A stretch of DNA of 46,025 bases, from assembly GCA_008632985.1 (NCBI GenBank), contig QPGO01000353.1, positions 1 to 46,025 on the forward strand, given 5' to 3'. Made by a program: the position numbers and the translations under genes. Below the pieces are notes generated by a model. The model worked only from the letters and a program-made list of their open reading frames with translations. It searched no databases and had not been told where the DNA came from. The DNA comes from Psammoneis japonica. Its lineage: Eukaryota. Shown piece by piece: positions 8,777 through 46,025 of this stretch; the stretch's first letter is position 1, and the number at the start of each line of letters is the position of its first letter.

Positions 8777-9144
8777 TGCACTGTGCTCAAAGAATGAGTG
8801 CAAACGAAAGTAGAGTCAAGCACGAAAAGTGAAAATTATGAGATTAAATTTTACTTTGTGATTGTTTGGTTTCTCTGAATGAGTTCTCAATGGCCTGAAG
8901 CTTCTGCACTGCTTCCACAGACAAAAGGCCTTTCGGAGAATGCATTCATGACAACAGATTGTCCGAGTGCTGTTGCCATTGACACGTAAGATGTCAACAT
9001 CGTCAATCAATCGCACTTGCAATTTTCAACTTCCGATCAACTCTGTGTGATCGTTCTGTCCTTTGTGCGCATCCACGACTGTGGTGCGATTGACACACAA
9101 ATGACACATGCTTGTGAACATGTTTGTGACAGTCACATGCTGCA
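8777..9144 (-). repeat. gypsy 3' LTR (368 bp)
   Basis: Direct repeat of 13807-14168 and inverted repeat of 15087-15454; TG...CA termini; preceded by the PPT. Confidence 0.9.
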
Positions 9145-13760: not shown

Positions 13761-13806
13761 AATTTTCATTTTCCATGTTTTTACCTTCTGTGGTGTGTGT
13801 GCACAA

Positions 13807-14168
13807 TGCACCATGCTCGAAGAACGAGCACAAACGAAAGTAGAATCAAGTGTGAAAAGTGAAAATTGTGAGATTAAATTTTGCTCTGTGATTTTTTGGT
13901 TTCTCCGAACGAGTTCTCAATGGCCTGAAGCTTCTGCACTGCTTCTGCAGACAAAAGGCCTTTTGGAGAATTTGTTCGTGACAACAGATTGTCCGAGTGC
14001 AATTGCTGTTGACACGCAAGATGTCAACACCCGATCGCACTTGCAATTTTCGACTTCCCATCAACTCTGTGTGATCGTTCTGTCCTTTGCACGCATCCAT
14101 GACTGTGGTGTGATTGACATGCAAACAACACATGCTTGTAAACATGCACACAACAGTCGCATGCTGCA
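13807..14168 (-). repeat. gypsy 5' LTR (362 bp)
   Basis: Direct repeat of 8777-9144, directly upstream of gag on minus. Confidence 0.9.
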
Positions 14169-15454
14169 ATGTCATGCCAACACTTTTGGTGGAGGCGAGC
14201 GAGATCGATCGACAAATGCTCATGTCACAAGGACAAAATCGTCTTACACAATGGCGGTTAGAAAAAAAACTCTGTGACAGATTGGCACATGATCACACAG
14301 TGTCCACTTCACACTGGCAAAAAACAATCTCACAACACCCACACGGTTGTGTCATACAATGTACGAGGCAAGACACAAACAACTTGTCATGTCAACACAC
14401 GAGATGTGCCAAAGATTCAGAAAAAGAAAAGAAAAATGGACATCATTTATCCACTTCTTAGTGCACGGAAGCAGTGCCTTCGGAAAGACAAAATGACACC
14501 GGTGTGTCAAAAAGAAACGTCCAAACAATGATTAAAATCCAACTGACAGATGTTTGAAGTACAAAAAATCCACAATGGAGTTCACAACCATCACAGGATT
14601 GATTGTCAAGACAAAATGGTTGTGTCCTTGACCATGGTTAATTGCCACTTATGAAATGTGGCAGTGCAGCAGAGCAATGTGGCATGTAAAGCAAGCCGGC
14701 CAAACTGCACGAAACCCACAAACAAGCAAGTGAACACCAATTGAGAGCACGCATCGAGCACTGGGCAAAATGCTGTGTGCAATTGATGCCATGAAAGAAC
14801 AGCAGGACAATTGGTCCTTGTGTCCACATGAACAAAATAACATCAGAGAGAATGCTCGATGCAACACCGCACACATGCACACATGCATGCACAGAGGGTG
14901 AGACAAACCATGACACTCTCGAAAGACATTTGGAAATTGAAACGGCCCCATGCTGGCCTGTGTAAAACAACAACAGCAATTGCCAATGGCACAATGCAGT
15001 TAACGTGGAGACATCATTGATGGTGTCAATGTCCGTTGAATTGTTCCACTTAACGAACAACTCCAATGTGCAATTAGGGAGGCAAATGCAGCATGTGATT
15101 GTCACATTCACACTTAAAATTGCATGTTATTTGTGTGTCAATCGCACCACAGTCGTGGATGCGTACAAAGGACAGAATGATCACACAGAGTTGATCGGAA
15201 GTCGAAAATTGCAAATACGATCAATTGACCATGTTGACATCTTACGTGTCAACAGCAATCATGTCCGGACAATCTGTTGTCATGAACATGTCATCCAAAA
15301 GGCCTTTTAGTCTGTGGGACTGGTGCAAAAGCTTCAGGCCACTGAGAACTCATTCGGAGAAACCAAAAATCACAGAGCAAAATTTAATCTCAATTTTTCC
15401 AATTTTTGTGCTTTACTCCACTTTAGTTTACACTCGTTCTTCGAGCACATTGCA
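14169..15454 (+). mobile_element. gypsy host copy, 3' UTR + PPT + 3' LTR (15087-15454)
   Basis: Reverse complement of 8777-10780 without the MITE; PPT AGGGAGGCAAA then TGCAGC at 15087; LTR ends ...TGCA at 15454. Confidence 0.88.
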
Positions 15455-15559
15455 CTGCATGCATCCTGTGTAGACCCTTCACACAAGGTGAGTCACTTGC
15501 TTGATGGCCAGTTGTGATGGTCTCAGTTGCGTGGATCTCCTGCAGCACATCATGGGTCT

Positions 15560-20222: not shown

Positions 20223-21365
20223 GTCACCCACACCCTTGAACAGATTGGAGTGCCAATGGCATTCTTTGATGCAACTCATTGCTGCCTGCCAAGGCTGCAG
20301 CAGCAGCTGCAATTTGATGCCAAGAGAGCAACATGTGCCATGTTGTTGTGGCTGGTGTCCCCCCAGTTGCTGCCAGAGGTGCGCGGCTGGCACCACCCAA
20401 GACCCGCCACGAGAAATGGATGGCCAAAGGTGCCATTTGGAAGGCAAGTGCGCAGACCTCCTCAACCACCACTTCGCCAATGGAGCCACTCCAGTGCCCT
20501 CTGCCACACTGCCCAAGCACATTGTCGACCTTGGCAACGTGGCACCCAGGGTTTTCTTGGCCTTGGTGAACCATGAGACGGGATGCAGGGTTGCTTGCAT
20601 GCCATCAGCACACATTTGTGACCCCGTTGCCATCTTGCCATGGGATGGATGTGTGCTTCATTCCCAGGGGTGTGTGTTGCCAGGCAACTTCATCAACGTT
20701 TTGGAATTGCCCAGCGCCCCATTCAACCTGGCTGGGCCCCAAGCAGCACCCGCTGCAACCAACACCCAGCTGATGAGAATGACCTCATTCCACCGCAGAC
20801 AGATGGCACAAACATTCAGCACCTGATCCAGGTGCCAAACGCATGTGTTCACCTGGTGTCCTCTGGAGATCTCACGCCATTGCAGGCATGGCGGGAACCA
20901 GGAGGCATGATCCAGAATGATGGGCATGCTCTGGCAACCTGGGCCCCCCAGTTGATTGGCTTTGAGCTGGGAGTCACCTCAAACCTGTTGAAAGTCAAAG
21001 CTGTCCCATCATGCTCGTGCGTGCAGGCATGGCACATCTGATTCCCACTGCCGACTCTGGTGAAATGGACCTTTTCATCCCCCACAACACATGTTGGTTG
21101 AGCACATTGCAGTTGCCTTTTCATCAGATTAAATTGTTCAGAAACGGATGTTTGTCGGGGTTGTCGAATGTAGGTGGGGCGACTTCGTCAAGCAAGTGAC
21201 CTCAACCCGTTTCCGGGTTGCCGGTTCAAGCACGTGTGTACGGAAAAAGGGAGGGACTCGAACCCCCGGCCTCGTCCTACGATCGGCGAAGCTCTGCCAC
21301 TGAGCTTGCCTTTTCACTGACACGTTGGGGACCAATCAGAGCATCTAATTTGTTCTGAGTGCTGG
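20223..21365 (+). repeat. split-repeat element, left part: block Y (20223-21151) + block B (21148-21365)
   Basis: Y is near-identical to 27211-28138 and B to 26694-26911. Y carries a frameshifted ORF (HLEGKCADLLNHHF...VFLALV...PWDG...GNFINVLELPSAPF) that I recall resembling ORF1 of diatom DIRS/Ngaro-type elements; that assignment is tentative. Confidence 0.75.
21243..21315 (-). ncRNA. tRNA-like cloverleaf (73 nt), copy 1; pseudo-tRNA or SINE-like head
   Basis: GAAAAGG CAA GCTC AGTGGCA GAGC T TCGCC GATCGTA GGACGA GGCC GGGGG TTCGAGT CCCTC CCTTTTT C: 7-bp acceptor, perfect D arm, canonical T arm, bulged anticodon stem. Confidence 0.75.
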
Positions 21366-22359
21366 CCACCGGCGAGAAAATGTGGACACTGACGGGACTC
21401 GCGTACATCCACGTGGAAGCAACACCAGGAAAGTGTTCGCAGATGGACACTGAAACACCACAAAACACGATGATCGTTGATGACACTGCTGTTGTGCCAG
21501 TCTTACGATAATTTCCACTCATTTTTTGCGTTGACATGATCACTCGTCTCATGAAGGACTTGCTTGCATCTTGGTTTGGTTGAAACAGAGGGTGAAATGT
21601 TGTTTGCGAGGTGAGTGCATTTGCTGCTCGAACTCGTGACTCGATCATGTTTCTGCCAGATGATTTGATGTGGTGGACTCGATGCCTCTCTTCAACATTC
21701 GTTCACACGTTTGGCACTTCTAATCTGTTGTTGGCACTGTCATGTTGCTTTTGCCGTGATGTTGTTTCAGCAGGTTTGATTTTCGGATTTTGGTGTGCCG
21801 TTTTGGGTTGCACATGTCAGGGTCAAATCTGGAGTTGGGGGGGGTGGTCAAAAACGCATTGAGCATGCATCCAACACAATTGTTTTGGCCACAGATGCAA
21901 CTCACAACGATCGTGTGCATGTTGAATGAGGAATTGACGATTTTGTTGCATTGACAACCGTCATCTTGGAGCCGCTCTACTGACACATGAGCTTGTCACG
22001 TCATTGCGGCGCAAAAAGTGAGACTGAGTCGGATGAGTTGATGGTGTGAACGATGATTTGCTTGAATGGCCATTGAAATGGCTTCACACGTTTGTTCAGA
22101 CTCGTGGGTGAGTGTTGTAAATCACTCTGTTGATGTTCAACCGGAACAACATTTTTGCACGCCTTTTTCACATTGCTCAATTTCTGTTCTGCCTTGGTTG
22201 CCACACAGCAGGCACTGAAGAAGCGCCTCGGCGATTCAAGAACAATGTTCAAATGCGCAAGAGCCTGCGTTTTCAATGTGACAGTATGTTGGTGAACGGC
22301 CTGGCTAAACACACAGCGTGAATTACTGCCACATTCCCGCAAATGGCAAGTTTTGGGAT

Positions 22360-25300
22360 TCACGCATTGAGAAGTCCAAACGACTCGAAACCTGCACTTT
22401 CTGACACATTGTCGCTCTCCGCTGTTGCGAGATCATTGGCAGCTTCTGCAAGACAGCAAACCATTGAAATCTTTTTTTCAGTTAGTGACTCCGAAGCATT
22501 GGAATTCTGAAGATGTGTCAAGATTTCTGGAGACCAGATGAAAATGCCATCGTCGCCTTCTTTGGCAAGTGCTTCAACCGTTCCTGGTTTTTCCCTGTCA
22601 AAACCAAATGCAACAACTTGCTCTAGATTCTCAAAACACCCTTTGCGCCCTGCTGTCAACTCTTTTGGGGCTTGCTTGCTGGGGTATGACGAGTAGAACT
22701 TGTTCCCCTGGTGCGACACAGTGCGCAGCAACGCACCCTTCTCGTGATCGTTGTTCCGAACTCCGAAGTTTCGCGTCACACCGGAAACTTTCCCAGCATG
22801 AACGGCACATTTTCCTCGATTCTTGTCTCTATGAACATGCACACCCTCCTGATGTTTGTTACTTTCATCTACAACAGGCATGGTGTCCAGGTTGAGGAGG
22901 GTGGTGTCGTCATCAGCACAGTCTAGATCATCGATGACGTGCTTGGATGGGATCATGATGGAAGCCATCCGGACTAAGTCATTGTGAAACCATTGCCAGA
23001 CCACGTGGTGACGATGTCCATTGTAATCGTTCAAACGATTGCGCTTGTAACGTTCAAGACGCGACGACAATAAACCGACCAGTTGGTCGCTCCGTTGTGT
23101 CATGTTGTCATCAGCAATGACGATGTCTTCAGCTGCTGTAACATGATTTGCAACCAGTTCATGCCATTTCACATTCTTCAAAACATGTGTAGCTTCAGGT
23201 AAGTTTTCGACTGGAGCACTTGGTGCATCTTCGCTTTCGAGCGGAACCTCCTGTCTTTTGTGTGTCACGTCGTGGTCACGCAACGACCAAGCGACTCTTG
23301 TCAGGTTTTCTTCCCCTGTTTTCGCATCTTCGAGCTTCCCCTTGTTAGGGAACTTGAAGGAGCAGGTCTTTTTAGCCATCTCCCATTTTCGCACATGGAC
23401 AAATGCCTGTAGCCTTGGAGCCGTCATGGCATTGAAGTCATCAAGACTCGCATTCGCAAGCCCTTTGCCGTTTCGCCCTCGGACGCGTGACATAATTTGT
23501 TGCTCACACTCCATCGCAGTGTCTAACCGCTTGTTATGCTCTCTTGCCATGCGAAGTTTTTTCCCATGTTCTNNNNNNNNNNNNNNNNNNNNNNNNNNNN
23601 NNNNNNNNNNNNNNNNNNNNNNNNNNNNNNNNNNNNNNNNNNNNNNNNNNNNNNNNNNNNNNNNNNNNNNNNNNNNNNNNNNNNNNNNNNNNNNNNNNNN
23701 NNNNNNNNNNNNNNNNNNNNNNNNNNNNNNNNNNNNNNNNNNNNNNNNNNNNNNNNNNNNNNNNNNNNNNNNNNNNNNNNNNNNNNNNNNNNNNNNNNNN
23801 NNNNNNNNNNNNNNNNNNNNNNNNNNNNNNNNNNNNNNNNNNNNNNNNNNNNNNNNNNNNNNNNNNNNNNNNNNNNNNNNNNNNNNNNNNNNNNNNNNNN
23901 NNNNNNNNNNNNNNNNNNNNTTGCCAGTTGCAGCCTTTCCCAGCATTTGCGGCAAGCAAGCAATGTGGTCTGTCAAGGCATCGCCCTTGTCACGCCCGAG
24001 AGTGACTGGGCTTTCTTCGAGACACCGTAAGATTTCCGCCTTGATGGGGTGGACAGTTGGGTTGAATGCCTCTGCCGTCAGCAAAGGTTGCAGTGACTCA
24101 ACTGCAGGAAAAACCTTGCTGAGATCACAACCCGCTTCAGATCCAGTGCAAGAAGGGTTGCTTTTGTTCTTGGTGAGTTTCTGTTGCAAATCGAGATTCT
24201 CAATTTCAGGATTGTTCGTGTGCGCCTTCATTTGACCCGTGTCGCCGTCGAACCACAGAAGAGATCGTAGAGTTTCAGGAACGGCTTGTCCCTGTGCCCA
24301 TTCATTGCTGATTTCTCTTTGAGCCTCAAGAAATGGTTGGAAAATGTGCCTTCGGCAGACAACCATTCATTCGGACTCTCGGTCGGCAACATTGTCACGC
24401 ATGAACAGGACGCAGCCACATCCCGCATTGAGGTTTGTGTCTCCACCAGCACACAGACCTCGGACCCGAATCAGATGTGTGCCATCCGCACTGTTGCATT
24501 CATCTGATGAGTGACCTTTGGGAAGCTCTCGATCTGTGAGTTTCAAGAAGCTGACCATCATGGGTGCCATCTGCCCACACGCAGAAAAGCAGTGCGTGTC
24601 TTTTGCTCGCGTGCCTCGCATTGACTTGTCTTCCCCACTCTTGCATTTTGCGTGAGTGCCAGCATCACAGTTCAAAGATGCAGAGACCAAACGCCACTCA
24701 CGTTTGTTGTTTTTTGTTCCCGCAAACACGTGCGTCATTGTGTCATCCAATCCCACAATGTACATGGGTTTAACAGGGTGCACCTCAACTCCCCATGCCT
24801 TCTCAACAAGTTGAAGAAAGAGCTTTGAACCCTCTCCAAGCTTTGGGAATGTGGCGTTTCGAAAATGTCTGTCGTGTCCGACAGCAAAGTGAGTTTGTCC
24901 GATGATGAGAGCCAGTGACATGGCTCCAATCAATGATTGCTCAGCTGTGCGTCGGGCTTCGGTCTTCTGTGTGACACTGTCGGTGATGGACGTTTTGGGA
25001 TTTGTCGCCGCGGCAAGAGTCCTGTGTCGACTGACCGTTGTTCGGTGAACTGTGTGCTCATTGTCTGCTGCAAGGCCTTGATGGTTCATGTCATCCTGCT
25101 TCTTCCTGTTTGACATTTTCTTGATGTCCTCTAACCCGACTGTTTGTCCTTTGCTCTCAACCACGTTTCCAGTTGCCTCAACGAGTTCGTTCTCAGTCAT
25201 GATTGGAACGCGACCCCTTGCTCCCCACGCCTTGTTGATTGGTTTCCCTTCTCGAATTTTTCACAGCACCTTGCACACACTCTTGTCACTGACATGTGGC

Positions 25301-26124
25301 ACACGTTTCTTCTGTGTCATGTCATTGACAATTCCCGCTCGCTCTTTCACGTTCCTTCCTTGAGTTGTGTCACAAACTTCTTGTTTGGTGCACTCAAGCC
25401 GATCTTTTGGTTCGGGGCACGTGAATGCTGCAGCATTTGACTTCTTCTTTTGAGTTGACTCATTTGAATTTTTTGTGTCCCCTTTTTGTTTTTTCGAGAG
25501 TTTGCGATCACCAGCAGGTGGCGTCTTGATGCGCAAGGCAAGTCGCTCCAGCTCAATGAGTTCATTGGCCTTTCTGGAAGCTGCTGGTGGTGGGATGTTT
25601 TCTTCATCTTCCATGTTGTTGGGACTTGGCAGAGACGTTGGTTCAAGATTGGCGGTGCGCAAAGCACGTGATTGGGCGACTTTCTCCGAAGCCGCAAGCC
25701 TTCGATGCGCACACGGAACGCCCGGCATCTTGGATTCTTTTGCAACCATTGCATTTGATTCAACAGTGGCTTGTTGAACAACAGAGAGTGTTTCACCAAC
25801 AACTTTCAGACAGTTGCTGGCCTTTTTCAAGTCACGTGCAGTGCTGTTTCTGTCGTCGAGAATTTGCCTGGCATCTCTCAAAATGACTTGCTGTTGACGG
25901 GTGGCTTGTGCGATGTCGGCATTACGAAGCTGAGTTTCAAGTGATTTGTCTTTGGCAGACCGTCCAATGGCAGCATCACCATCTGTCCCAGTCATGTTGT
26001 TTGTTGCAGCAATGAGAGCAGCTTTTGCATCGATCCGAGATCGTTCTTTTTTTTTTTTCACGTGGTTTTGTAAGTTGTTTTCGGCGCGTGCTCTCGGATG
26101 ACTCGCACGGAGGTCAAATGCCAA
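22360..26124 (-). pseudogene. ~1200-aa pogo-like DD40D transposase with C-terminal GIY-YIG-like domain; two in-frame TGA stops and an assembly gap
   Basis: ORFs 25261-26124, 24367-25200 and 22360-24366 are in one frame (first ATG 25995). Motifs GRVPIMTENE, IVGLDDT, FSACGQMAPMMVSF, LLWFDGD, CTGSEAGCDLSKVF, then EGVHVHRDKNRGKCAVHAGKVSG..RNFGVRNNDH. Confidence 0.75.
23573..23920. other. assembly gap (348 N)
   Basis: Run of N. Confidence 1.
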
Positions 26125-26476
26125 AAATGACCTTTTTCAGTGTCCAGTCATGCTCGGTGTCCATTCCCGCACGCCGGCAGCTGGTGGTTTGCCAGCGCCC
26201 AGAGGTCCTGTCCTGCTGGCACGTGGGCTCGAGCAGGTGTGCTTGCAGACGCGGGACCATGAACATCACCTTGTCTTCTACATTGGGTTCGCGGCTTCAA
26301 GGTGTGATCAGCACCTCTGCTCCCTTGGGGATTGCCATGGCTTTGCACGTGTTCCGAGTGTTCCGCTTGGAGCTTTCCAGTGTTTGCTTGGTCGAAGGCG
26401 TCACTGCCGCGCCCTTCCCTAAGTGGGACAGGGCCACCCGTTCCTAACTGCTGGGGTTCCAGTTAGGGTGCACTGC

Positions 26477-26601
26477 CCAGGGTTAGGGTTCGCACGGTGT
26501 AGGGCAGGGTTCGGTTAGGGAACGCCCCCCTTCCTTGCTGTGCCCAGGGTTGGGGTTCGCACGGTGTAGGGTGGGGTTCGGTTGGGGAACACCCCCCTTC
26601 C
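26477..26601 (+). repeat. 2 x ~65-bp G-rich tandem repeat with TTAGGG/TTGGGG motifs
   Basis: CCCAGGGTT(A/G)GGGTTCGCACGGTGTAGGG(CA/TG)GGGTTCGGTT(A/G)GGGAAC(G/A)CCCCCCTTCC occurs twice. Confidence 0.85.
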
Positions 26602-26788
26602 TGTCATGGGTTGTCATGCAAGAGGACGCTTGCCGAGTTGGGGTCGACTGTGAAGCAGCCCCCCGTCGCACCTCATTATTGAAGTATTCATACATGTTTA
26701 TCGGGGTTATCGAATGCAGGTGGGGCGACTTCGTCAAGCAAGTGACCTCAACCCGTTTCCGGGTTGCCGGTTCAAGCACGTGTGTGCG

Positions 26789-26861
26789 GAAAAAGGGAGG
26801 GACTCGAACCCCCGGCCTCGTCCTACGATCGGCGAAGCTCTGCCACTGAGCTTGCCTTTTC
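26789..26861 (-). ncRNA. tRNA-like cloverleaf, copy 2
   Basis: Identical to 21243-21315. Confidence 0.75.
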
Positions 26862-28138
26862 ACTGACACGTTGGGGACCAATCAGAGCATCTAATTTATT
26901 CTGAGTGCTGGTGGTTTGCCAGCGCCCAGAGGTCCTGTCCTGCTGGCACGTGGGCTCGAGCAGGTGTGCTTGCAGACGCGGGACCATGAACGTCGCCTTG
27001 TCTTCTACATTGGGTTCGCGGCTTCAAGGTGTGATCAGCACCTCTGCTCCCTTGGGGGTTGCCATGGCTTTGCACGTGTTCCAAGTGTTTTGCTCAGAGC
27101 TTTCCAATGTTTGCTCAATCGAAGGCGTCACTGCCACGCCCTTCCCTGAGTGGGACAGGGCCACCCGTTCCCAACTGCTGGGGTTCCAGTTAGGGTGCAC
27201 TGCCCAGGGTTCACCCACACCCTTGAACAGATTGGAGTGCCAATGGCATTCTTTGATGCAACTCATTGCTGCCTGCCAAGGCTGCAGCAGCAGCTGCAAT
27301 TTGATGCCAAGAGAGCAACATGTGCCATGTTGTTGTGGCTGGTGTCCCCCCAGTTGCTGCCAGAGGTGCGCGGCTGGCACCACCCAAGACCCGCCATGAG
27401 AAATGGATGGCCAAAGGTGCCATTTGGAAGGCAAGTGCGCAGACCTCCTCAACCACCACTTCGCCAATGGAGCCACTCCAGTGCCCTCTGCCACACTGCC
27501 CAAGCACATTGTCGACCTTGGCAACGTGGCACCCAGGGTTTTCTTGGCCTTGGTGAACCATGAGATGGGATGCAGGGTTGCTTGCATGCCATCAGCGCAC
27601 ATTTGTGACCCCGTTGCCATCTCGCCATGGGATGGATGTGTGTTTCATTCCCAGGGGTGTGTGTTGCCAGGCAACTTCATCAACATTTTGGAATTGCCCA
27701 GTGCCCCATTCAACCTGGCTGGGCCCCAAGCAGCACCCGCTGCAGCCAACACCCAGCTGATGAGAATGACCTCATTCCACCGCAGACAGATGGCACAAAC
27801 ATTCAGCACCTGATCCAGGTGCCCCACGCATGTGTTCACCTGGTGTCCTCTGGAGATCTCACGCCATTGCAGGCATGGCGGGAACCAGGAGGCATGATCC
27901 AGAATGATGGGCATGCTCTGGCAACCTGGGCCCCCCAGTTGATTGGCTTTGAGCTGGGAGTCACCTCAAATCTGTTGAAAGTCAAAGCTGTCCCATCATG
28001 CTCGTGCATGCAGGCATGGCACATCTGATTCCCACTGCCAACTCTGGTGAAATGGATCTTTTCATCCCCCACAACACATGTTGGTTGAGCACATTGCAGT
28101 TGCCTTTTCATCAGATTAAATTGTTCAGAAACGGATGT

Positions 28139-28500
28139 CACATTTCCAGCTTTGGACGGGTTCCAGTCCCAGCAGGTGGGACTCCGTGTGACATTGGGCC
28201 CGTAGAATTCTACGTGCGAGCTCTGCAGTAAATTTGTGCTGCAATGAAAACACAAATGATCGCCAACAGAAAAAGAGGCAATTTTACGAACGCATCTCCT
28301 CCTTCATGCTTGACGCACATCGTTGACAGTTTGCCCGGGTACATTCTACAGACATTAAAGAATGTACCCAGCGTATTTTCACTCTCACAAATGTTGAAAA
28401 TAGAAAGCCTTTGGCTTCGCAAAACAGGGAGTAGAAACAATTTCGTAGAATGTCACACGTAGAAATGCTGGTGCGCGACATGCGACGCGATCCGAAAAAC
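28139..28500 (+). pseudogene. putative hAT-like transposase fragment
   Basis: Frame from 28141: SPSRWDSV*HWARRILRASSAVNL...NDRQQKKRQFYERISSF, homologous to 7640-8330 (minus). Confidence 0.55.
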
Positions 28501-31500
28501 TGAATAAATGCCACCATGATGGCTAAGAATTGGGTGTAAGACAAGACAGACTGTTGAACAGCATCAACAGGTTCTAGAATTGTGAGATGTTTCGCCACTG
28601 GGACCACTGAACAAGCAACAGTGGACTAACAGCCAATGGCACATAAACTGCCCATGTTCGTGACAGCACATCAGCATTTGTTCAGTCCCCCTCGAACTGA
28701 CACTAGCTCCGCTCGGGCCAGATTGACAGACAAATGCCACCTGATGCTGCCCCATTCCAGGGTGGCATTTTCATGTTGGGGATGGGAAAAGCCACACCTG
28801 CACGGCAAACCTGTTTGGTTTGTCCCCCTTTTGGGACTCACCACAGGATGTGACTTGTGATTTCCCGGAGCTTCGGTCCAGGCAACAACTTAGTTAGTAC
28901 GTCCGCTAAATTCGTGCGTGCGTCTTCCCAAGCAATGCACACTGTTCCAGCGCCTTGTGCCTCACGAGTCCTGTGATGGGCAATCGCATTGTGCTTCTTC
29001 TTCAATGTAGACTCCAGCTTGGTTGAGTTGATGAAGACAGCCTCATTGTCGCAGAAGACATTGGTGGCCCCATCCATGGGGATTCCGAGCATTCGAAGCT
29101 TGCAACGCAAGGCTTCAATTTGCTCCACTGCGGTCTTCATCACCACGAACTCCGACCCAAAAGTGGACAACTCTGCAGTGTTCTGCCATTTAGAGCAGCA
29201 CAAGATGGGCGCTCGTTGAATGAATGTCAGGATCCCAGTGTGGGACCTGCACGTCACATGGCATCCGGCGTGATCAGCATCGACAAAGCAAGTGGTGGTC
29301 ATGCTGTTCCCACATGCTTCTGGCACATTCAGCAGCATTGGTTCAGCTGCACCAGGGCAATGTTCTTCCCAATGGCACTTGGTAAAACAACTCTCGTCAA
29401 AGACAGGCTCAGTGTCGTTGAACACTGGCGCAGACTTAGAGCGAGCCTTCAAGTGCACGAAGATGTGGAGCACCTCGTCCAGGTGTCCAACTTGTGGTGC
29501 CGCCAAGCAGGAGGACATGAGCAAGACAGTGAGAAAAATGTCCACTCGCCCTAGTTCAACCACCCATCGTAGCACACCAATGAGGCCTTGGCAGCAGTTG
29601 GCCGTTTTGGCATGTCAATTCAGGTGAGCCATCCAGTTCAGGCCTGTGTCCCGAGCTCAAGGGCGTCAATGCCTTCTTCGGAAGGCACCCATCAGTTTTC
29701 TTAAGCTCCAATTCAACATCAGCTAATGTTCTTTTGACACAAAGGTCAGAGGACATGGCCCAGTGTGTCCCACCGTCCGAGTCAGACAACTGGCACTTTC
29801 TGATCTGGGCACCCAAGTGCTCTTCCGGCTTGCAGACACTTCCGTCCTTGAGCGTGCACCCAGAGCTCACACAATCCATGACCTTCTGAGGTTCATGGGA
29901 GATGCACAACAAGTCATCCACATAAACAAGTGCACATGTTCCCAGTGCTTGAAGCCATCCGGCTTAACCGCAGCTTGCATCCAGACATCCGGGTCAGCCT
30001 TGCAAGACTCAAACCCAGCATCAAGCAAAGTGGCTGCCATGTGTTCCCTAAATCTTGCACCTGAAGACTTGAGACCATGCAAGGCTAGGGCAACAATTGC
30101 CGGCCTTCCTTCATCATGCTTCCCAAATTCCAGGCCAGCAGTGGTGTGACACTTCTCCTTAGTGTGTGCATTCAAACAGGCATTCTGAACGTCGGCACTC
30201 AGGACCTCCAGGTCATTCAGAGCTGCTGTGGTGAATGCCATCCTAACGCTGTCACGCGATGCCATGCTGGAATAAGTCGATTCCTTGGGTGGATCGGTTT
30301 GATGGCCTCCGGCCATTAACCTCGCTTTACGTTGGACGGTGCTCTTGATGTCAAAGATCACATGACAATCAACGTGTTTGCACCCGACTGGCACAGCATC
30401 GTCATCGTGGAATTCGAATGCAGGCATGACGTTACGCATTTCCTTCTCGACAGCCTTGAACCAGAAGTCAGTCCCCACTCTGTCATCTGTCTCCACAGCT
30501 TCCTCAACAGATTTTGGGAGTTCAATTGGGAACTTGTGCATGCGTTTCCAGCAACGCGACTTGACTTTCTTCAGGATCCTTGACCTGCAACGCAAGACGT
30601 CTCGGACCCACCAGTTAAAAGCTGGTTCACCAGCTGCCTTGTTCGCTGCAGCATGCTCAGCAACCTCGACAGGGTTAGATTCCTTCAAATCCTTGAGGGG
30701 AACCCAGGATGTAGTCCCATCCTTCCATTTGACTTGCAGGTCCCAGCCTGTGGTTGTCCTCCTGGGAGCACACCTGCCAGTCTTAGTCGTCATGCACCTG
30801 TCATCAGCCACAATGTCGGTGATCGACTGTCTCCACAATCTGGCAGGCACGGTCGTCCTCCCAGGAGCGCGCCTGCCAGTCTCAGTCGTTGTGTGCCCAT
30901 CATCAGCGGTCACGGCACGGGCATCACATCGGTGATTGACTGTCTCCACAATCTGGCAGGCATTCCCTTCAGAGTCTATCTGAGCGAATGGGTTCTCTGA
31001 AATTACGTTGGCAGCACAGGAATCAGTGGATCCATCAGGAAACTCCACATCATGTGTCCTCAAGTCTGGGACAGGGTTGTCATTCCCAGTGCCAACAGGA
31101 ACCCCGTTGCTGTCTCGTTTGCGTGCAACAACCCTGGCATGAGTCAGCTTGCCTCCACGTGGTAACATGACTTGAGCTGTGAGGCATTCATCTGGCTGCT
31201 CTGGGGTGTGCTCATCAGCTTCTGGTTTGAAAGCGTTGGGTTCCATGGGTTTGACAGCATCGTCCCATTCGTCCATGAAGTCATCAGGGAGTTCAGGGAA
31301 GTCAGCATTGGCACCCCGTTCTGGGATGTTAAGTCGTTCGATCAAAGCCTGATCGACTGATGCAAGATCCGTTTGGATTGCCAGAGTTTTAAGGTCATCC
31401 TCCGGCATGGCCCACACATCTTTCCAAATGATGGGTCTGCCTGATTCGGGCAGAATGACAAATGCCATGTCATCAGTGCAGTTGTCGGCTGCTCCGAGCC

Positions 31501-34500
31501 AACGGCCAATGCACTTCTTCTCGTGTGGGAACTCCACCACAGGCATGCAATGGCAGACAGGTTGACACCAATCAAAGAGAGAGAGGGAGGAAATGTCAGG
31601 TGTTGAACCTGTCACCTCTTCTTCTGGGACTCGTCCTCCCACATCCGACATGCCAGTCGCAATCATGCATCGGACATCACACATCCATTTGGCACCATGG
31701 GACCAAAGTTGCCTGTGAGCTCCAGTCCGGCGCAGAGTCACGCGGACTCTTTTCTTCAACTCACGAATGGATGCCTCAGCCAGGTTCTGCCAGGGGCTGT
31801 GTGGGGTGGACACCTCCTGGTGTGTTCTGCATTCCTTGCAAATCTCCTTGGTCTTGCCTTCTGCCATTTCCAGCGTGCCATCCGACACAAGGACTTGCGG
31901 TGTGCCAACGTCATGCACAAATGACATGACGGGATTCGGGTGGTCCTGTTTCCTCTTCCAAGGACAGAACCCATCATGCCCTCTTTCGTTGGTGAATGCA
32001 CTTCCTCCTGTCTCGCCATGTGTCAATTTAACCTTCGAAAACATCTGGTCAGAGTAGAAGCGTCCCTTGACAGCAGGGAACTTAAGCCATGGGGCTTTCT
32101 TCTGGATTTTCTGTTCAGATGGTGTGCAGACATTGCAAACCCCTGCCTGGGTCGTCACTCCAAGGGTGTTCTTAGCAGCCGTCAGACCAATGTTCCACCT
32201 CTTAGAGAGCATCTCGGGTGTGATGGTCGATGCATGACTCGAGGTCGACAGTGCATGGTGCATGCACCCGTTTCCGCTTGGCACAATCCGGGTGGACATC
32301 TGGGTCGTACCGGTCGTGCATCCCATCTCCCTCAATGTCGTTGTGGGAGACATTCACCTGAGCAACTAGGCTGTGATACAGAGAATCGTCATCATTGGTG
32401 TCCATGATGACATTCTCGTCGTGACAAGACGTTTGACACGAATGAATTGAAGCGACACACCTGGTCGCATTCATCATCGTCGCCTGTCCGTCAGACTTTA
32501 CTGATCCTTGGCGTACACTGGCACATGCATGCGCTTCCTCCTTTTGCGCCATGGCATCAGCAGAAGGCTCCCATCTCAGGGGTGATGTGAGTTCCAGCCG
32601 GGGAAGGTTCTCCAGATCCTCCTTGGTCAGCTTGTGTGAGTCAAAAACTGAAGCAACACCTCACATGCGCAATGGCATCCTCATCTTCGAGTCAGGGAAA
32701 GCAACAGAGTGTGTGCTGTTGGGATCAAACTGGCAGGGAGTGTCGTGGACAGTCAGTCCATTTGCTCGCAGTTGGTTGGGGCACAGCAGGGTGTTGGTCA
32801 TCCTGTCCCCAAAAAACACAGCCTCATGGACTGACAGCAGGCATGGTTGTCCATCAGTTGGATCAACCCACATGGCAGCAGCCATGCAAATGGGAATGTT
32901 TTTCATTGGTGCATGCTCTTCGGAGTGAGGATGTGCCACAGCAGTGCGGTCGACATCAGAGTGCTTTACAAAATTGGACCCAACAGCACACGCATCAGCA
33001 TGTGAGTCCAAGTCATTGGTTGCCTCACCATCTGAATGTCCAGCAGATGACAAAGAGACATGCACATCCTTTAAGAATTGCCTGGATAAATGCACAGTGC
33101 CAGCAGGTTTAGTGACAGTCAGTTCTGTGCCTTTTAGTGCTGGCGCAACTGTTCATTCCTCTTTCTGAGGTTTCTTGTGTGCGCTGCATCCAAACTGCTT
33201 GCCTGCATTGGCAGCAGGTTCACCCGACTCTTCGGAGTCCTTTTGTTCATCAGTGGGTTTAGGTTCAGGCTCAGCAACAGCCACCTTTTTAACAGCACGA
33301 GTTTCGGCATCGACCGACTCAGCCTCCAAGGATGCAGCTGCTGCTTTGCATTTCTTCTCGGCTTTCTTGGCCTTGTGAAGCTTCTTAACTTGCTCTTGCT
33401 CAGGACCGTCAAGAGCACTCCACTCTTCAATGGGACAATGGCCTGCCCTGATCCTGGGCTTGTCCTTTTTAGGTTGGTGCTTGCCGCCAGGGTTTCCGTG
33501 CCGGTTGTTGGATGGATGCGATGCCGTGAATGTCAGTGTTGTGGTTCTTGGCATTCTCCACCAGAGTTTTCACATGCTGCTGGCATGCTTCAAAATCCCC
33601 TGGTTTTGTTGGGTCTCCATCCACTGCACTCTTGCCAGTCTCCAACCTGGTGTCGGAGATGCCCTTGAGAAAGTCAGAGACCTTCTTGGTCTCGGCTGCC
33701 GGTTCATCAAGCTCCGACAAGTCGTTGTGAGCTTTCTGATGGAGTTGAGTGCACTGGTCAAAAGTGAATCGACACCATCCAGTGTGCTTTGCCGTGGCAA
33801 TCTGTGCACAGGCACGGTTCTTGCGGGCAGTGGCGGCAGCCGATCCTTCTGCCTGCCTCTTAAGTGCAAAGAAGGCAGTGCAACCATCGTGATCAGCCGA
33901 TCCTTCGGCCTGCCTCTCAATTGCAAAGAAGGCAGTGCGACCATCGCGATTGCGATTGGAAGGTTTGACAAAAGCCCATCCGGGCCCCCCTGTCACCAGC
34001 TTCTTCAAGAGAACATGCAGGTGTTGTCTGTCCTGTGCATGCTGAGCTCCTGCAAGTCGGGTGGCAGCAACAAGGTCTTTGTCAATGGCAGTGCAGGCAG
34101 CAGCCAACATTTCGGCGATGACATCTTCATGCTCCCCAGTTGGGTAGATGAGGGGTGTGCTGGCAACGGCACTGCGGTGGTGGCACAGTTTCAGTCTCCA
34201 GCAACTCTTGGAAGGTGGGCCAGTCACATGGATTCTTGAGTTCCACGGCTGTCTTGGCAGCCAATTCATCGTCCGAGTCCGCTGACTTGAATTGCTCCAG
34301 TTCCATGAGACGTGCCATCCATGTCCCAACAATGTCACCAGTGAAGAGAGCAGCAGTCGGCTGTTGGTTCCGGGCCCTGTGGCAGTCAATCCATGCACGC
34401 AGTGCCTTGAACTTGCAATTTGCCAGGTGTGGGAAGCGGACTTGGGGGTTGGCGGCAGTGTCCACGCTCTTCACAATGCCCTCAGTCACAGCAGCAAGTT

Positions 34501-35354
34501 CTGCCACAGGGACTTGTTCCAAGTCCTGAACAGCAGTGAAGTCTTGACCGGCCATGCAGGCACGCGTCTGCGCATTGCATCCACAATGCGCAAGACAAGC
34601 GGTGAAGGCTGTGGCAGCGGCCATGGTGTGTCAGCAGTTATTTGCATGTCGACGCGTGAGCATCCACTTGTGTGAGTGGAGAAAAGTGAGAAAAATGTGT
34701 GGTTCTTGTGCCGATTTGGTGGTTTCTACTTGGCGAACCTGCGAGCAGGCGGTGTTGCTCCTGAGCAACAATTTCCATCAGACATGTGTCCACATGCACA
34801 GTGTCTGAGCAGTTTGACAATGTATTTTGATTGGTCAAATGCACATGATCAAATGACAGACCTCAACACACAAATCATTGTGTTGTCTTCATCATGAATG
34901 TTTGTGTGTCTTAGCCAACATGTTCTGTCCACATGACCAAACATTCGGTCCACTGACGTCATGTTCAATGGATCACAGCTCTGGTCTCCAAGTGCATGTC
35001 GTTCATGTCCATGAACATTGATGCACACAAAGGACTCAGCGATTGTGCAAGCAACCATGGGACCAACATGGCGCTTGCGGCAAAAATCGATCAATCGCAA
35101 CAATGTCATCATGCCATTCGTGATGCCCATTCCAGGCGATGAACATCACAGTGCATTGGCTCTGACAAAGTGAGTGAACACTGCCACAATGGCCAAGAAT
35201 TGGGTGCAAGACAAGACAGAGTGTTGAACAGCATCAACAGGTTCTAGAATTGTGAGATGTTGCGCCACTGGGACCACTGAACAAGCGACAGTGGACCAAC
35301 AGCCAACAGTGCATAAACTGCCTACATTCATGACAGCATGTCAGCATTCATTCA
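28501..35354 (-). mobile_element. near-complete Ty1/copia (CoDi-like) LTR retrotransposon
   Basis: 5' LTR begins TGAA at 35354; 3' LTR begins TGAA at 28684 after PPT GAGGGGGAC and is cut off at ~28501; gag-pol lies between. Confidence 0.92.
28838..34624 (-). pseudogene. pol: copia gag-pol pseudogene
   Basis: gag from MAAATAF (34624); protease DLDSHADACAVG; integrase FYSDQMF, LVSDG, STPHSPWQNLAEASIRELK; RT FDIK...RKARLMAGGH, ADVQNACL, ALHGLKSSGA; RNase H FVDADHAG...RSHTG...STFGSEF...FCDNEAV...NLADVLTK. Confidence 0.92.
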
Positions 35355-35369
35355 AAACCATTGATGTCA

Positions 35370-37319
35370 CAGTGCAGTGGTGCGAGGTCCCACCTGGCAG
35401 AGCTCGAACACGTCTTTGGGTCAAAACTCAACGGACACCCCGCTTTCAACAAAAAGTTGTTGAAAGTTAGATTTTTCAACAACAATCTGTTGAAAGTTGT
35501 TCTTTCAACAAAAAACATGTTAAAACTTGTGCTTTCAACAAAAAATCTGTTTGTGTTGTCACCGATGCCGTTCAACATCGAATTGTTTGATGCTCTGATG
35601 ATGCAGCAAAAGACAGCTCCTGAGGGCTTTCATTCTGTAGACTGCAGCACATCCAACACCTTTTGTCAACACCTTCACACCTGCCACAAGACATGTTCAA
35701 AGCCACAAGTGTCAACAAGTGCACCGCAGATGGAACCAGTTCGACCTTGTTTTTTTGGGTTGCCGAGTGGGTTGCTCTCATGAGTGACAAGGCAAAATGA
35801 AATGAAGATAAAATTCACAATTGAATTGTTGCTTTGCCTCTCATTCCATTTTCCAACATGCTCCATGTGTCTGCAGATGGGCGGCAGTGATTTGCGATTT
35901 GGAAAATGCGCGCACAGAAGGCTGCCAACATGGTTTTGACTCATGTCGCATTCAAGTGGGCCTCGGAAGAAATTGCCAAAAATGCCAACACCTTGTCACT
36001 TTAATGTGACATGCATTTTTATGGAGTCCTCGCAGATGCCACAAGGTGATGGACCATTGCTGTGCTGACGTTAGAAGAAAATGTGAGTCCGATGCTGACA
36101 AGAAGCGCTCCAGCCCTCTAGCTGGGTGGGACTCCATGTGACATTGGGCCCACAGAATTCCACGTGTTAGCTCCGTAGCACAAGATTTTAATTGATGGGT
36201 GTGTTTGTCTTCCACATCAAATAAACGGCCAAGTTTGTGGTGCAATTGAGCCTCTTGCCACTCGACGTTTTTGCAAATGCGCCTGCCCTGCACGATTCCC
36301 AAGACATTGTAGAATGGTGCTGCAACAAAAAATGTCAAAAGTTGTTGGACAGATTGCTCAAAGGTCCTTCCAGGCAGTGATCTGCTGGTGCCATCCATCT
36401 CACCCAGCGATTCCCCCAGTGGCATGTTGTCAGCGCCATCTGCAGTTCTGAGTGAGAATCCTGGTGGCAAACTGTCAGCGGCTTGATTCTCTCAGCCTGG
36501 CAATCCACCTGCAGCTCCAAGTCTGAGTCCCAGCGTGCTGCGTCTTTGACAGTTTCATCCTTGGAGCCAAGCACCAAGCCATGAGCAACTCCATTAGCCA
36601 CACTGAGCAAATCCCTTTCTTGACACCTTCACAATGGAACTTCTCTGCAATGCCATCTGAAGTGCCAAGTGTGGCCAACGGCAATTGCCCATCAAAAACC
36701 TCTGTCACATGAGCCACATGATGGCCCATCTCACACACCTTCACACTTTTGCCATTTGTTGATTGTGCTTGTGTGGCCGATTGACCATGGTGAAAAGGAA
36801 ATTTTCCCTGCTTGCAGCTTTTCCAGACATCAGTTGCAACCCAAAGTTTCAGCCACACCAAGGGCATCATGCATCACGTCATGCAAAATGCAAGTGGTGA
36901 ATGTCAGAAGCAGGTGTCATGGGGGGGGCAAAGCACACAACAACACAAACAGACAACTCTCATTGATTTCAGGAGAAACAACAGCAGATTTTCAAGTTGT
37001 CTCTTGCCAAATGTCTTTCTTGGAATGCACTTGCACCACTTTTTCACACTGCAGATCAACACAGAGCATGCAAAGTCATTCACAAAATGCTGCTGGACAG
37101 CTCTGGGTGAGCAGTGGCTGTTGAGATGCAAGCATCCAGAGATGGTTGGTGTGTGGTTCTGCCATTCCTTGTGATGTCTAGAGTGGATGGGTTGAAAATT
37201 GTTGAAAGTTACGTCTTTCAATGCAAAATTTGTTGAAAGTTGCAACTTTTGACAAAAAGGTGTTGAAAGTTGTGACTTTCAACAAAAAGTTGTTGAAAGT
37301 TGTTTGGTGACAAACACTG
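35370..37319 (+). mobile_element. putative hAT-like DNA transposon derivative with subterminal repeat arrays
   Basis: Arrays of ~29-30-bp palindromic units TTTCAAC(A)n..GTTGAAAGTT at 35443-35550 and 37190-37300; right end ...CAAACACTG; internal GWDSM*HWAHRI (~36125) and TMVKRKFS (~36785, like hAT S..VER.FS). No clean TSD found. Confidence 0.55.
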
Positions 37320-37494
37320 CAATGACTTTCTTGTTGTCAAAAGCTTCAAAACTGGACATGCTTGAACACACTCATTTGTCTGGAACAATTTGTTGCCAAC
37401 AAGTGCAAAGGGCAACAGACTGAATTTTTTACTGTCCAAGGTGTGATTGGCGTCACAATGCAGACATTGCAATTTCCTGTGATTTCATCCAAGA

Positions 37495-38200
37495 ATGAAG
37501 CATTTCAATTTGAGTCACAGTTTCAACAACTCTGAGGCAACTCCCTGCCCTTGCTGTGCATGCCGCCACCAATCTGGACCCAGTGCACTGTTTGGGGGGG
37601 CATGCCACTGTCTTGCCACCCCTGGCTGTCAATGCAGGGCTCCAAGACCATTGCTCCAAGACCTGCCTGCACTGGATGCTGCAGTGGTCAACAACATGGC
37701 CCAAGTTCCAGCCTTTGCCAACATTGTTCAAGCCAATGCAGCCAGAGCCAAAGCCACTTGCACTGCAGCAGCTTCCACAGCAGTGGCCCCAAAAACTCTG
37801 GTGGAGGCTTTCCCGCAAACTGCACCTGTCGGGCTGCTGCCATCTAGTGTGCCGGACAATGGGGCATTGTGTGCGCTGGAGGCCCATGCACAAGAGCTGG
37901 ACACTGTGTTTTGAGTGGCACCTGTCATCTCCAAAGAGCTCCACAAGTTGGTGTTCCAAGGCAAGGTTGGATCACACGTGCACCAGGTCAATGACTTGAC
38001 AGTGGGCATCTCCCCACTCACCTGTGGATTTTTCTTGAGCAACCAAGGTTTGAATGTCCAGGTGTGCACTGAACAATGTGACCTTGCTCTCTTGGGAAAC
38101 CTCACACCCACGGTGGCAGAGCAGGAACAATTCTGCACCAAGAAATTGCTGCTGCCAACCACCACACACCACTGTGGGAGCATGCTTCAGGGAACCAAAA
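37495..38200 (+). pseudogene. degenerate ORF fragment, possibly ORF1/gag of a DIRS/Ngaro-type element
   Basis: In-frame ALEAHAQELDTVF*VAPVISKELHKLVFQG...NDLTVGISPLTC reads as real protein. The family call is from recollection only. Confidence 0.35.
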
Positions 38201-38309
38201 ACAAAACCCAAAATCTGTTTTTAAGGTGCTGCTGTGATTCTGCCCCACAACTCCAGCAACAAACTAACCCACATCCCCAGCACACTTAACATGCAACACA
38301 GGTGAACAG

Positions 38310-38740
38310 TGATCAGCCTGAAACAGCATTGCCAAAACCATTCTGCCTCACAGATGCTGGACTTAAACATGGGTCTGATGATTGCCAACCAGGTTTGGAG
38401 CCTGTGGGTGGAGTGAGCAAGGTGCTCATCAGCTGAATCAAAAAGTTCTGCTCAGTTCTCAACCAAATAAAATGGCAGTGCTGTGCCATGTTTTGTGGAT
38501 TGGTGTGCTGCACCAGCCATTGCCAGTCATCGGTCATTGGTGATGTGTCATTTGGAGGGAAACTTTTCTGTGGTTCTCCATGAGCTGGTTGCGGTCACTT
38601 GTTGCATGATTGAGTTGCAACAAGCCCAATGAAGCATTCTGTTGATTGTTGCATTGCATCCCACTGGCACTGTGAGCAGCTGAGCCATTTGGCAGCTGGG
38701 CTCATTCGCTTTGTCAGAGCCACAGTCCTCACTCACGTGT
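38310..38740 (-). pseudogene. possible non-LTR (LINE) post-RT fragment
   Basis: RMLHWACCN...QVT and QHCHFIWLRTEQNFLIQL loosely resemble the L.W.Q...PHL...WL...R.FL block downstream of LINE RT. Weak. Confidence 0.25.
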
Positions 38741-38983
38741 GGTGAGTCAGAAAGTGATGTTCAACAACTTTGTCAAATGGTTTGATCAATTGGCATGGAT
38801 GGCAACACATGCCAATCAAACTGAAGGGTGCACGATGATGTTTCATCACCTGGCATCAGTGCATGCAGAGACAGTGGGGGACAAGGCCCCTTCCCATGCT
38901 CACAAGGCCTTGTGTTGCCGCCAACACGGCCTTTCTAACACAACATTCTTGACTCCTTGTGCTCACATGACACAGGTGTCACC

Positions 38984-44613: not shown

Positions 44614-46025
44614 TGAACAAATGCTGATGTGCTGTCACGAACACAGGCAGTTTATGTGCTGTTGGCAATTGGTCCACTGTCGCTTGTTCAGTGGTCCCAG
44701 TGGCACAACATCTCACAATTCTAGAAACTGTTGATGCTGTTCAACACTCTGTCTTGTCTTGTGCCCAATTCTCAGCTGTCATGGCAGCATTTGTTCACTT
44801 TGTCAGAGCCAATGTGCTGTGATGTTTATGCCTGGATTTTTGTGGCAAGCGCCATGTTGGTCCCATGGTTGCTCACGTAATTGCTGAGTCCTTCGCATGT
44901 GTCAATGTTCATGGATGTGAACAATGTGCTCTTGGAGACCAGAGCTGTGATCCGTTGGACATGACGTTAGTGGACAGAATGTTTGATCATGTGGATGGAA
45001 TGTGTTGGCTAAGAAACACACACATTCGTGATGAAGACAACACAACGATTTATGTGTTGAGGTCTGTTGCTTGATCACATGCATTTGATTAATCAAAACA
45101 CAAAACATGTTGTCAAACTGCTTAGACACTGCACATGTGGATGCATGTCTGTTGGAAATTATTGCTCAAGTGTAACCTCGCCTGCTCGCAAGTTGGCCAA
45201 GTAGAAACCACCAAATCAACATGAGAACCACACGTTTTTCTCATTTTTCTCCACTCACACAAGTGGATGCTCACGCGTCGAAACGCAATTGACTGCTGAC
45301 ACACCATGACCGCTGCGACAGCCTTTGCTGCTTGTCTTGCACATTGTGGATGCAATGCACAGACGCGTGCCTGCACAGCCGGTCAAGGCTTTGCCACCAT
45401 TCAGGACTTGGGACAGGTCCCTTTGGCAGAAATTGCTGCCATGGCCAAGTCCGCTTCCCAAACCTGGCGAATCGAAAGTTCAAGGTGCTGCGCGCATGGA
45501 TTGACTGCCGCAGGGCCCGGAACCAACAGCCGACTGCTGCTCTCCTTGCTGGTGATGTCATTGGGACATGGATGGCACATCTCACAGAATTGGAACAATT
45601 CAAGTCAGTGGACTCGGATGACGAATCGGCTGCCAAGACGGCCGTGGAACTCAAGAATCTGCATGACTGGCCCACCTTCCAAGAGTCACTGGCAACTGAA
45701 CTGCACCACCACCACAGTGCCGTTGCTGGTCACCCTATCTGCCCAGTTGGGGAGCATGAAGACGTCACCGCCAAAAATGTGGCTGCTGCTTGCTCCACCA
45801 TTGACGAAGACCTCATTGCTCGCCACCGACTTGCAGGAGCTCAGCACACCAGGACAGGCAAACACCTGCATGATCCTCTTGAAGAAGTTGGTGAAGGGGG
45901 GCGGATGGGCTTTTGTCAAACGCTTCCATTGCAATCGCGATGGTCGTGCTGCTTCTTTGCACTAAGAGGCAGGCAGAAGGATCGGCTGCTGCACACCCAA
46001 AAGAACCGTGCCCATGCACAGATTG
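44614..46025 (+). mobile_element. copia element of the same family as 28501-35354: 5' LTR, leader and start of gag; runs off the window
   Basis: TGAACAAATGCTG... at 44614 is the reverse complement of the LTRs ending at 28684 and 35354; gag MTAATAFAACLAHCGCNAQTRAC (45306) matches MAAATAFTACLAHCGCNAQTRAC. Confidence 0.92.

Follow-up and report, generated by a model that had tools for sequence, protein, structure and literature searches.

RIP (Pezizomycotina, RID/DIM-2) is a dinucleotide-specific, strand-symmetric and transition-only process that mutates repeats, spares genes and inflates the divergence of LTRs. In diatoms, RIP has been linked with DNMT4, and transposable elements (TEs) undergo CG methylation by DNMT5, according to the accessible part of PMC9998398. 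Diatom LTR elements have been dated with one constant rate, which gave older peaks in araphid pennates; TpA, dinucleotides and hypermutation are unmentioned in the accessible part of that study (10.1101/2025.10.24.684338). The closest described system is that of the rhizarian Bigelowiella natans, in which mutation-accumulation lines revealed that hypermutation restricted to TpA affects NCLDV and virophage DNA integrated in the genome (10.64898/2026.01.13.699255). The accessible part of this report concerns two viral inserts, one of them shown to be single-copy, gives a regional TpA rho of 0.45 and a per-generation rate raised ~1000-fold in vegetative lines, notes an enrichment of TE-type Pfams among coding sequences poor in TpA, and proposes ADAT2 as the candidate enzyme; diatoms, stramenopiles and LTRs are not mentioned in that part. 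Here we describe the B. natans signature in a stramenopile, on transposons and near saturation, which is new relative to what could be consulted of this single earlier description. In a full-text literature search, with most subscription journals outside its coverage, no account of TpA erasure in diatoms came up.

The window, i.e. the whole stretch of DNA that we analysed, is a contig of 46,025 nt from Psammoneis japonica, in a 91.4-Mb eukaryotic assembly, and its content is decayed repeats. The variation in these repeats is not due to chance, because transitions make up 437 of the 476 minority bases in 32 LTR copies and because the window as a whole has a TpA o/e of 0.13, a CpG o/e of 0.45 and a TG/CA o/e of 1.72. 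The initial annotation had aligned three LTR copies (A, B and C in Table 1) and taken two of them for the ends of one element. They are indeed the two LTRs of one insertion: AAAC flanks both, and an empty-site form joining ~28460 to 35354 is found in read-set contigs, which are confounded by paralogues, may be the source data, and were used for this joint only. The genome contains at least 40 matches to this LTR, and target duplications of 4 bp are exact in 8 of the 10 assessable members of the family, with one mismatch in the other 2. Paired TG...CA LTRs, the target-site duplication and an RVT_2 domain downstream of the integrase place the element in Ty1/copia. RVT_2 lies at the C-terminal end of the longest pol fragment (29867-32350, minus strand), and the integrase-like stretch upstream of it was read by eye in a TA-rich copy of the family; the homologues of pol have RVT_2, one additionally with PF00665, and the closest named ones come from Fragilaria crotonensis and Fistulifera solaris. 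RVT_2, the integrase before the reverse transcriptase and the TG...CA LTRs are shared with the diatom Ty1/copia elements, which we take to be of CoDi type. The usual target duplication of copia is 5 bp, unlike the 4 bp observed here, and every family member that we inspected is broken. The element is nested in a very high-copy repeat (28101-28500 and 35355-36500), with a summed contig depth of 58,000-106,000 at the ends, which also matches 8005-8319 and 36125-36178; its part at 28139-28500 has a TpA o/e of 0.51 and a CpG o/e of 1.08.

Table 1. Features of the window discussed in the text (positions in the 46,025-nt window).
Feature	Position	Strand	Remarks
Young direct repeat of another element	21148..21365	+	Partner 26694..26911 (+)
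Target-site duplication AAAC, left, 4 bp	28497..28500		Flank of copy A
Copy A, 3' LTR of Ty1/copia element	28501..28684	-	6 TA left; purine tract adjoins on minus strand; pol on minus strand
Resistant TA within TCTAGA	28575..28576	+	Retained in 30/32 LTR copies
Private TA	28627..28628	+	CA in 41/43 LTRs, TA only in copy A, TG only in the allelic copy of A on contig C133
Polypurine-tract-like run adjoining 3' LTR	28685..28694	-	Same flank at other 3' LTRs; putative function, from sequence
Internal region, broken gag-pol	28685..35170	-	TpA o/e 0.16; of 153 reference TA sites, 112 now CA or TG, 0 CG
Longest pol fragment, integrase to reverse transcriptase	29867..32353	-	RVT_2 E 5.9e-7; conserved Tyr changed to Cys/His
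Copy B, 5' LTR of the same Ty1/copia element as A	35171..35354	-	3 TA left; differs from A at 26 sites, 16 of them in TA-class columns
Target-site duplication AAAC, right, 4 bp	35355..35358		Flank of copy B
Copy C, 5' LTR of a second family member, opposite orientation	44614..44797	+	Element leaves window at right end; allelic copy with both LTRs on contig C133

The variable dinucleotide columns of the LTR (32, then 43 copies) fall into two classes, 20 with TA, CA or TG (TA class) and 5 with CG, CA or TG (CG class), 3 being assigned to neither. The same separation appears in the internal region, where a reference-free comparison of 19 copies found both CA and TG in 171 of 193 TA columns, CG in only 19 of 2970 cells of these columns, and TA in only 10 of 6868 cells of the CG columns, which number 417 there in addition to the 5 of the LTR. 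Two natural TA-rich copies served as reference wherever they have the same state. At their 153 TA sites the window copy shows 41 TA, 57 CA, 55 TG and 0 CG; at their 196 CG sites it shows 102 CG, 42 CA, 42 TG, 0 TA and 10 other states; and at their 753 CA/TG sites TA appears once. The proteins tell the same story. At 24 columns where Tyr is conserved in 120 homologous proteins from other sources, the window copy encodes 11 Cys, 10 His, 2 Tyr and 1 Phe, and over 16 copies of the family Cys or His occupy 312 of 371 cells; in the same comparison conserved His is intact in 159/160 cases and conserved Cys in 45/47. Since the outgroup proteins carry Tyr at those codons, TA is the older state, and this ancestral TA was changed to TG or CA. 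With nearly all Tyr codons of pol lost, the element is disabled. Related elements at 80 metagenome loci have TpA o/e values of 0.44-0.87 (median 0.67), against 0.16 here, these loci having been selected for Tyr-bearing motifs. None of the 80 has a TpA o/e below 0.3 and none of the 120 homologues has 25% or more His/Cys at the Tyr columns, two negatives that are uninformative on absence elsewhere because both sets were selected for intact Tyr-bearing motifs.

These counts bear directly on what had been noticed in the three-copy alignment. All four motif triplets reported there are in place, and columns 28505, 28524 and 28653 do each combine TA, CA and TG; in examples 3 and 4 the three copies show no more than TA/CA/CA. 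In a set of 43 LTRs, which includes both LTRs of single elements and some allelic pairs, column 28524 has 13 TA, 10 CA and 20 TG, column 28537 has 13 TA, 25 CA and 5 TG, column 28653 has 18 TA, 6 CA, 18 TG and 1 gap, and column 28655 has 6 TA, 17 CA and 20 TG, always with 0 CG. The reading of TA as an ancestral state resolved to CA or TG on either strand thus stands for examples 1-3, where CG is found in no LTR copy, and falls for example 4 (28627), where TA is derived; judging from its distribution among the copies, it is a new private mutation, probably erased again in the other haplotype. Aligning the genomic LTR copies and counting TA against CG ancestors, as the annotation had proposed, separated the TA and CG classes, with non-target sites differing at 16 of 1395. 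Its expectation that the youngest copies would reveal the direction is weak for this copia family, in which TA survival and CG survival are uncorrelated (Spearman 0.03, 19 copies), and it is the outgroup proteins, not young copies, that settle the direction; the equation of TA-rich with young was likewise dropped, as copy distances do not support it. The annotation had also overlooked that CpG decays to TG/CA in parallel.

The changes came after insertion and distort the dating of the elements, as had been predicted. Across 2005 sites, eleven LTR pairs (excluding copy L048, whose LTR is cut by a contig end, and, from the pooled totals, the C133 allele of the window element) differ 184 times. 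TA columns account for 138 of these differences, CG columns for 17, columns of unassigned class for 12, a target transversion for 1, and the 1395 non-target sites for the other 16. The TA-class columns are partly defined from the copies that were scored and the counts are thus partly circular; with stricter columns, drawn from six TA-rich LTRs only, 126 of 193 differences fall at TA, a set that still included 8 misaligned sites of a truncated LTR. Copies A and B differ at 26 of 184 sites overall and at 3 of 128 non-target sites. Jukes-Cantor distances are inflated 8.5-fold in the pooled pairs and 6.6-fold between A and B, on small counts and with the same partly circular column classes, so that LTR dating is inflated about 6-8-fold.

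The process starts early. On contig C133, the LTRs of a young copia whose 4-bp duplication is perfect differ at 6 positions over 276 bp, namely 3 of TA vs TG/CA, 1 of CG vs TG, 2 from one TG/CA column and none elsewhere, and the young direct repeats at 21148-21365 and 26694-26911 differ at 5 sites, all TA vs CA/TG (5/7 TA, 0/16 CG and 0/172 other sites). Erasure also continued after the split of the haplotypes. Much of the window has a 96-98% identical counterpart on contig C133, either an allele or a segmental duplicate, in a comparison of 28101-46025 with this contig. Over 21,158 aligned positions, in which one 0.9-kb duplicated stretch is counted twice, 51 of 194 TA sites are TA vs CA/TG, 177 of 617 CG sites are CG vs CA/TG, and 128 of 19,489 other sites differ; since that split, TA and CG targets have both changed ~20-fold over background per base, at surviving sites. 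Of 283 TA-class states, 261 are common to both haplotypes, including 217 that are CA or TG. Some CA/TG states are common to copies above chance, which implies that part of the change was inherited from donors already mutated. A young TA-rich copia is inserted on C133 near the position matching 28101 and is absent from the window.

The spectrum of the process is narrow. Among 4395 cells of TA columns there are 1680 CA, 1586 TG, 1067 TA and 62 other states; the two strands are affected alike (CA:TG 1680:1586, p 0.10), the changes are almost exclusively transitions (3266 against the 62 others), and transversions stay at background level. The preceding base matters greatly, since A after A, C or G is changed in only 2.1, 1.5 and 1.1% of cells. 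The following base matters less: the strand with a 3' C or T after TA is changed more (0.54 and 0.49) than that with A or G (0.30 and 0.35). TTAA (61/91 cells), CTAA/TTAG (156/361) and CTAG (35/94) survive best, and GTAC (15/128) and ATAC/GTAT (17/152) worst. Processive single-strand tracts were considered and rejected: neighbouring changes fall on the same strand in 644 of 1329 cases at 3-15 bp (shuffle null 669 +/- 15), 497 of 1000 at 16-40 bp (489 +/- 13) and 320 of 646 at 41-150 bp (325 +/- 10), and such tracts are absent from four lightly changed copies as well. A clustering of surviving TA at 2-250 bp mostly disappears in a comparison that excludes the 5' end and keeps the totals of rows and columns fixed (ratios 0.94-1.17), and the spacing of surviving TA shows no nucleosome-scale pattern.

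The extent of erasure varies sharply along the genome and between copies. We sampled 18 stretches, each of 10 kb and placed at round coordinates, in bins of 1 kb: TpA o/e is below 0.2 in 96 of 179 bins, at least 0.35 in 76, and in between in only 7; over the sampled bins, it correlates with CG o/e (0.76). Sampled host-gene loci are spared and mobile DNA is erased, in a comparison that covers few gene controls rather than a genome-wide annotation: deaminase or DNA-methylase profiles picked out 21 loci, some of them overlapping, and 17 of these have a TpA o/e of 0.36-0.67, with CpG mostly near 1. Matches to C5-methylase domains number 27 in the genome, and four loci with such domains, on contigs C301 and C297, lie within TA-erased DNA and have almost no Tyr; these methylase genes are probably carried by mobile elements and struck by the same process. 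Among copies of the copia family, TA survives at 1 of 129 to 98 of 120 sites (1% to 82%), and since CG survival does not follow it (rho 0.03), extent is set by locus and history, not by age or copy number alone. Nor does TA loss correlate locally with CG loss when the 5' end is excluded (obs/exp 1.02). The 5' LTR is spared in 3 of 11 elements (contigs C157, C12 and C65), retaining 12-14 TA where the 3' LTR has 2-3, and for two of these three elements the spared zone reaches ~600 bp into the element, a pattern that would be expected for a protected active promoter.

A second, separate process removes CpG from the same DNA, yielding TG/CA as from 5-methylcytosine. It accounts for 17 of the 184 LTR-pair differences, and its pace equals that of the TA process since the haplotype split; as a source of the columns singled out by the initial annotation it would call for an ancestral CG, which is found in 0 of 43 LTRs. 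Between the window and C133, transversions are also in excess at CpG sites, with 40 in 617 (of which 27 are C/G) compared with 54 in the 19,489 other sites, suggesting that methylated CpG undergoes damage or mis-repair in addition to deamination.

Other repeats of the window were struck too. In the insert at 21148-27211, a broken minus-strand frame lies between split direct repeats (21148-21365/26694-26911 and 26180-26484/26907-27211), a layout presumably of Ngaro/DIRS-like type; Pfam and Atlas searches gave no identity for the element at 21353-26179, and 348 N occupy 23573-23920. The insert has a TpA o/e of 0.14 and a CpG o/e of 0.91, so that TA loss runs far ahead of CpG decay there, and it is flanked by a 928-bp duplication (20224-21151/27211-28138, 98.5%). 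Inverted repeats of ~1.15 kb (8774-9922 and 14314-15457) surround a 4.4-kb interior, in which the four frames searched gave no Pfam match; a further partial copy lies at 13802-14168, and the whole, which is TA-erased, probably represents a decayed DNA transposon. A 30-bp unit forms two arrays that face each other, at 35443-35544 and 37195-37303, and that resemble the subterminal repeats of a DNA transposon.

That a host process changes TpA to TpG/CpA in repeats is, taken by itself, nearly certain. The explanation that we prefer for the whole, with fair confidence, is host-driven TpA mutation of silenced repeats in which the adenine is deaminated; for adenine deamination as the chemistry, our confidence is about the same. 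The change acts on chromosomal DNA, because it is strand-symmetric and because both LTR pairs and haplotypes differ. The process, as we picture it, involves 1) mutation of TpA to TpG, or CpA on the opposite strand, in the chromosomal DNA of silenced repeats; 2) a choice of targets that may rely on chromatin state, i.e. on repeat domains with CpG decay, and not on homology pairing; 3) a lesion that is most likely adenine to hypoxanthine, made by an enzyme of TadA/ADAT2 or ADAR type; 4) an apparent preference of this enzyme for a 5'-T and, less strictly, for a 3' pyrimidine; and 5) the presumed fixation of hypoxanthine as G at replication. The lack of correlation between TA and CG loss, across copies (rho 0.03) and locally, is a counterpoint, in that it lends no support to a direct dependence on CpG methylation. 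The genome encodes a probable organellar TadA, an ADAT2 and an ADAT1-like gene, where the ADAT1 and organellar labels are what we assume from motifs. A second gene with an editase domain, on contig C79, has ADARs as its best solved matches, shows no RNA-binding domain, and has homologues in many diatoms, centric and pennate. The presence of these genes proves nothing, because ADAT2 is universal and the ADAR-like gene occurs across diatoms; they are candidates, and our best guess is a TpA-specific DNA adenine deaminase. The ADAT2 found here carries the Asn named in the motif region given in the accessible part of 10.64898/2026.01.13.699255. Contig C79 also has a locus (319-1791, minus strand) where a zinc deaminase domain is fused to a DIOX_N/2OG-Fe(II) dioxygenase, probably for nucleobase salvage.

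If the T of TpA were modified instead (e.g. to a base of the formyl- or hydroxymethyl-uracil type), paired with G and were read as C, with the same targeting, the outcome would be identical, because T-to-C and the A-to-G of the opposite strand are the same base-pair change, and modified thymines on repeats are known in dinoflagellates. We nonetheless consider such a thymine lesion rather unlikely: a profile search of the genome, run without a positive control, gave no match to Tet_JBP, and transversions at TA columns are at background, whereas base oxidation frequently produces some. The filling of repair gaps in methylated repeats by a Y-family polymerase (Pol eta-like, A-to-G at WA) would explain why TA and CG depletion co-locate at the kb scale, and both the C/G transversion excess at CpG (40/617 between haplotypes), a hint of repair there, and the slight rise of AA to AG (2.1% vs 1.1-1.5%) go in its direction. 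However, Pol eta uses TA and AA at roughly comparable levels, and here ~75% of TA sites are changed against 2% for AA, with neither strand-coordinated tracts nor coupling to nearby CpG loss, so that base deamination fits better than error-prone gap filling and we regard the latter as very unlikely.

Less probable still is the editing of element transcripts by an ADAR-like enzyme with U-A preference, fixed through reverse transcription. The genome does have an ADAR-like editase gene, and some states are common to several copies, but CA and TG are balanced with no bias towards the sense strand, the inverted repeats at 8774-9922/14314-15457, in which no RT domain was found, are TA-erased as well, and as a main route editing is refuted by differences that lie mainly at TA between the LTRs of single insertions and that recur at TA between haplotypes of one insertion. 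A derived TA, reached from CG through CA/TG by double hits or RIP-like C-to-T changes, would make the TA-rich copies the most mutated; CpG decay is real here and the fourth example is a derived TA, yet we find this scarcely credible for the class, in which CG is nearly absent, as TA is from the CG columns. CA/TG sites turned to TA only once in 753, the 80 metagenome loci keep a TpA o/e of 0.44-0.87, and the outgroup comparison, with Tyr and not Arg, His or Cys at the codons, rules out a CG ancestry with double hits. We give almost no weight to an assembly or sequencing artefact. The stretch is present in one read set, possibly the source data, and in no listed RNA set, but the separately assembled C133 haplotype agrees at 261/283 TA-class states, 217 of which are CA or TG, and we know of no error mode that makes codon-level, context-dependent, strand-symmetric and repeat-limited changes.

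Our study thus places TpA hypermutation in a second, distant lineage, on ordinary transposons and at genome scale, so that it is no longer the oddity of one species. It becomes a candidate for a general defence system whose chemistry is opposite to that of RIP and APOBEC, a question open to test in culturable diatoms, and a pointer to a possible natural editor of DNA adenine. Wherever TpA erasure acts, dating of TEs from LTRs or consensus sequences is inflated several-fold, and the older peaks reported for araphid pennates in the accessible part of 10.1101/2025.10.24.684338 may be inflated in this way. Open frames devoid of Tyr and rich in Cys and His will, moreover, mislead annotation. One may go further and imagine a dedicated defence pathway, possibly old within SAR, in which a natural TpA-specific adenine deaminase acts on chromosomal dsDNA, guided by silent chromatin and sparing active promoters, with about half of the diatom genome rewritten and the 'ancient' LTR bursts of some diatoms being dating artefacts; this larger picture is tentative and, to us, doubtful.

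Compared with the described systems, CpG decay of methylated TEs, with CG methylation of DNMT5 type in diatoms (PMC9998398), accounts for the CG-class columns and the CpG o/e of 0.45 in the same repeat domains, but fails for the TA class, which has other columns, another ancestor and an extent that is uncorrelated across copies. RIP resembles the process described here in being dinucleotide-specific, strand-symmetric and transition-only, in mutating repeats and sparing genes, and in inflating LTR divergence. It differs in direction, since RIP makes TpA from CpA/TpG by C:G to T:A changes, whereas TpA is removed here (CA/TG to TA in 1/753, TpA o/e 0.13). RIP is also premeiotic and set off by homology between repeats; here, 1% to 82% of TA survives in equally repeated copies, so that the extent is not set by copy number alone. 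The similarity with B. natans, as far as it can be drawn from the accessible part of 10.64898/2026.01.13.699255, is much closer: TpA becomes TpG/CpA on either strand, by transitions only, on foreign or mobile DNA only, and unevenly in time or place. In the window's repeats too, A:T turns to G:C only at TpA and on both strands, and host genes are spared in a limited sample. Unlike in B. natans, the host is a stramenopile, the targets are LTR retrotransposons and other repeats, and o/e falls to ~0.1 over roughly half of the sampled kb. The rate was measured in B. natans and is relative here, at ~20-fold per base since the haplotype split; the diatom, in turn, adds the time points given by LTR pairs and haplotypes, a preference for flanking bases, spared 5' ends and a parallel decay of CpG.
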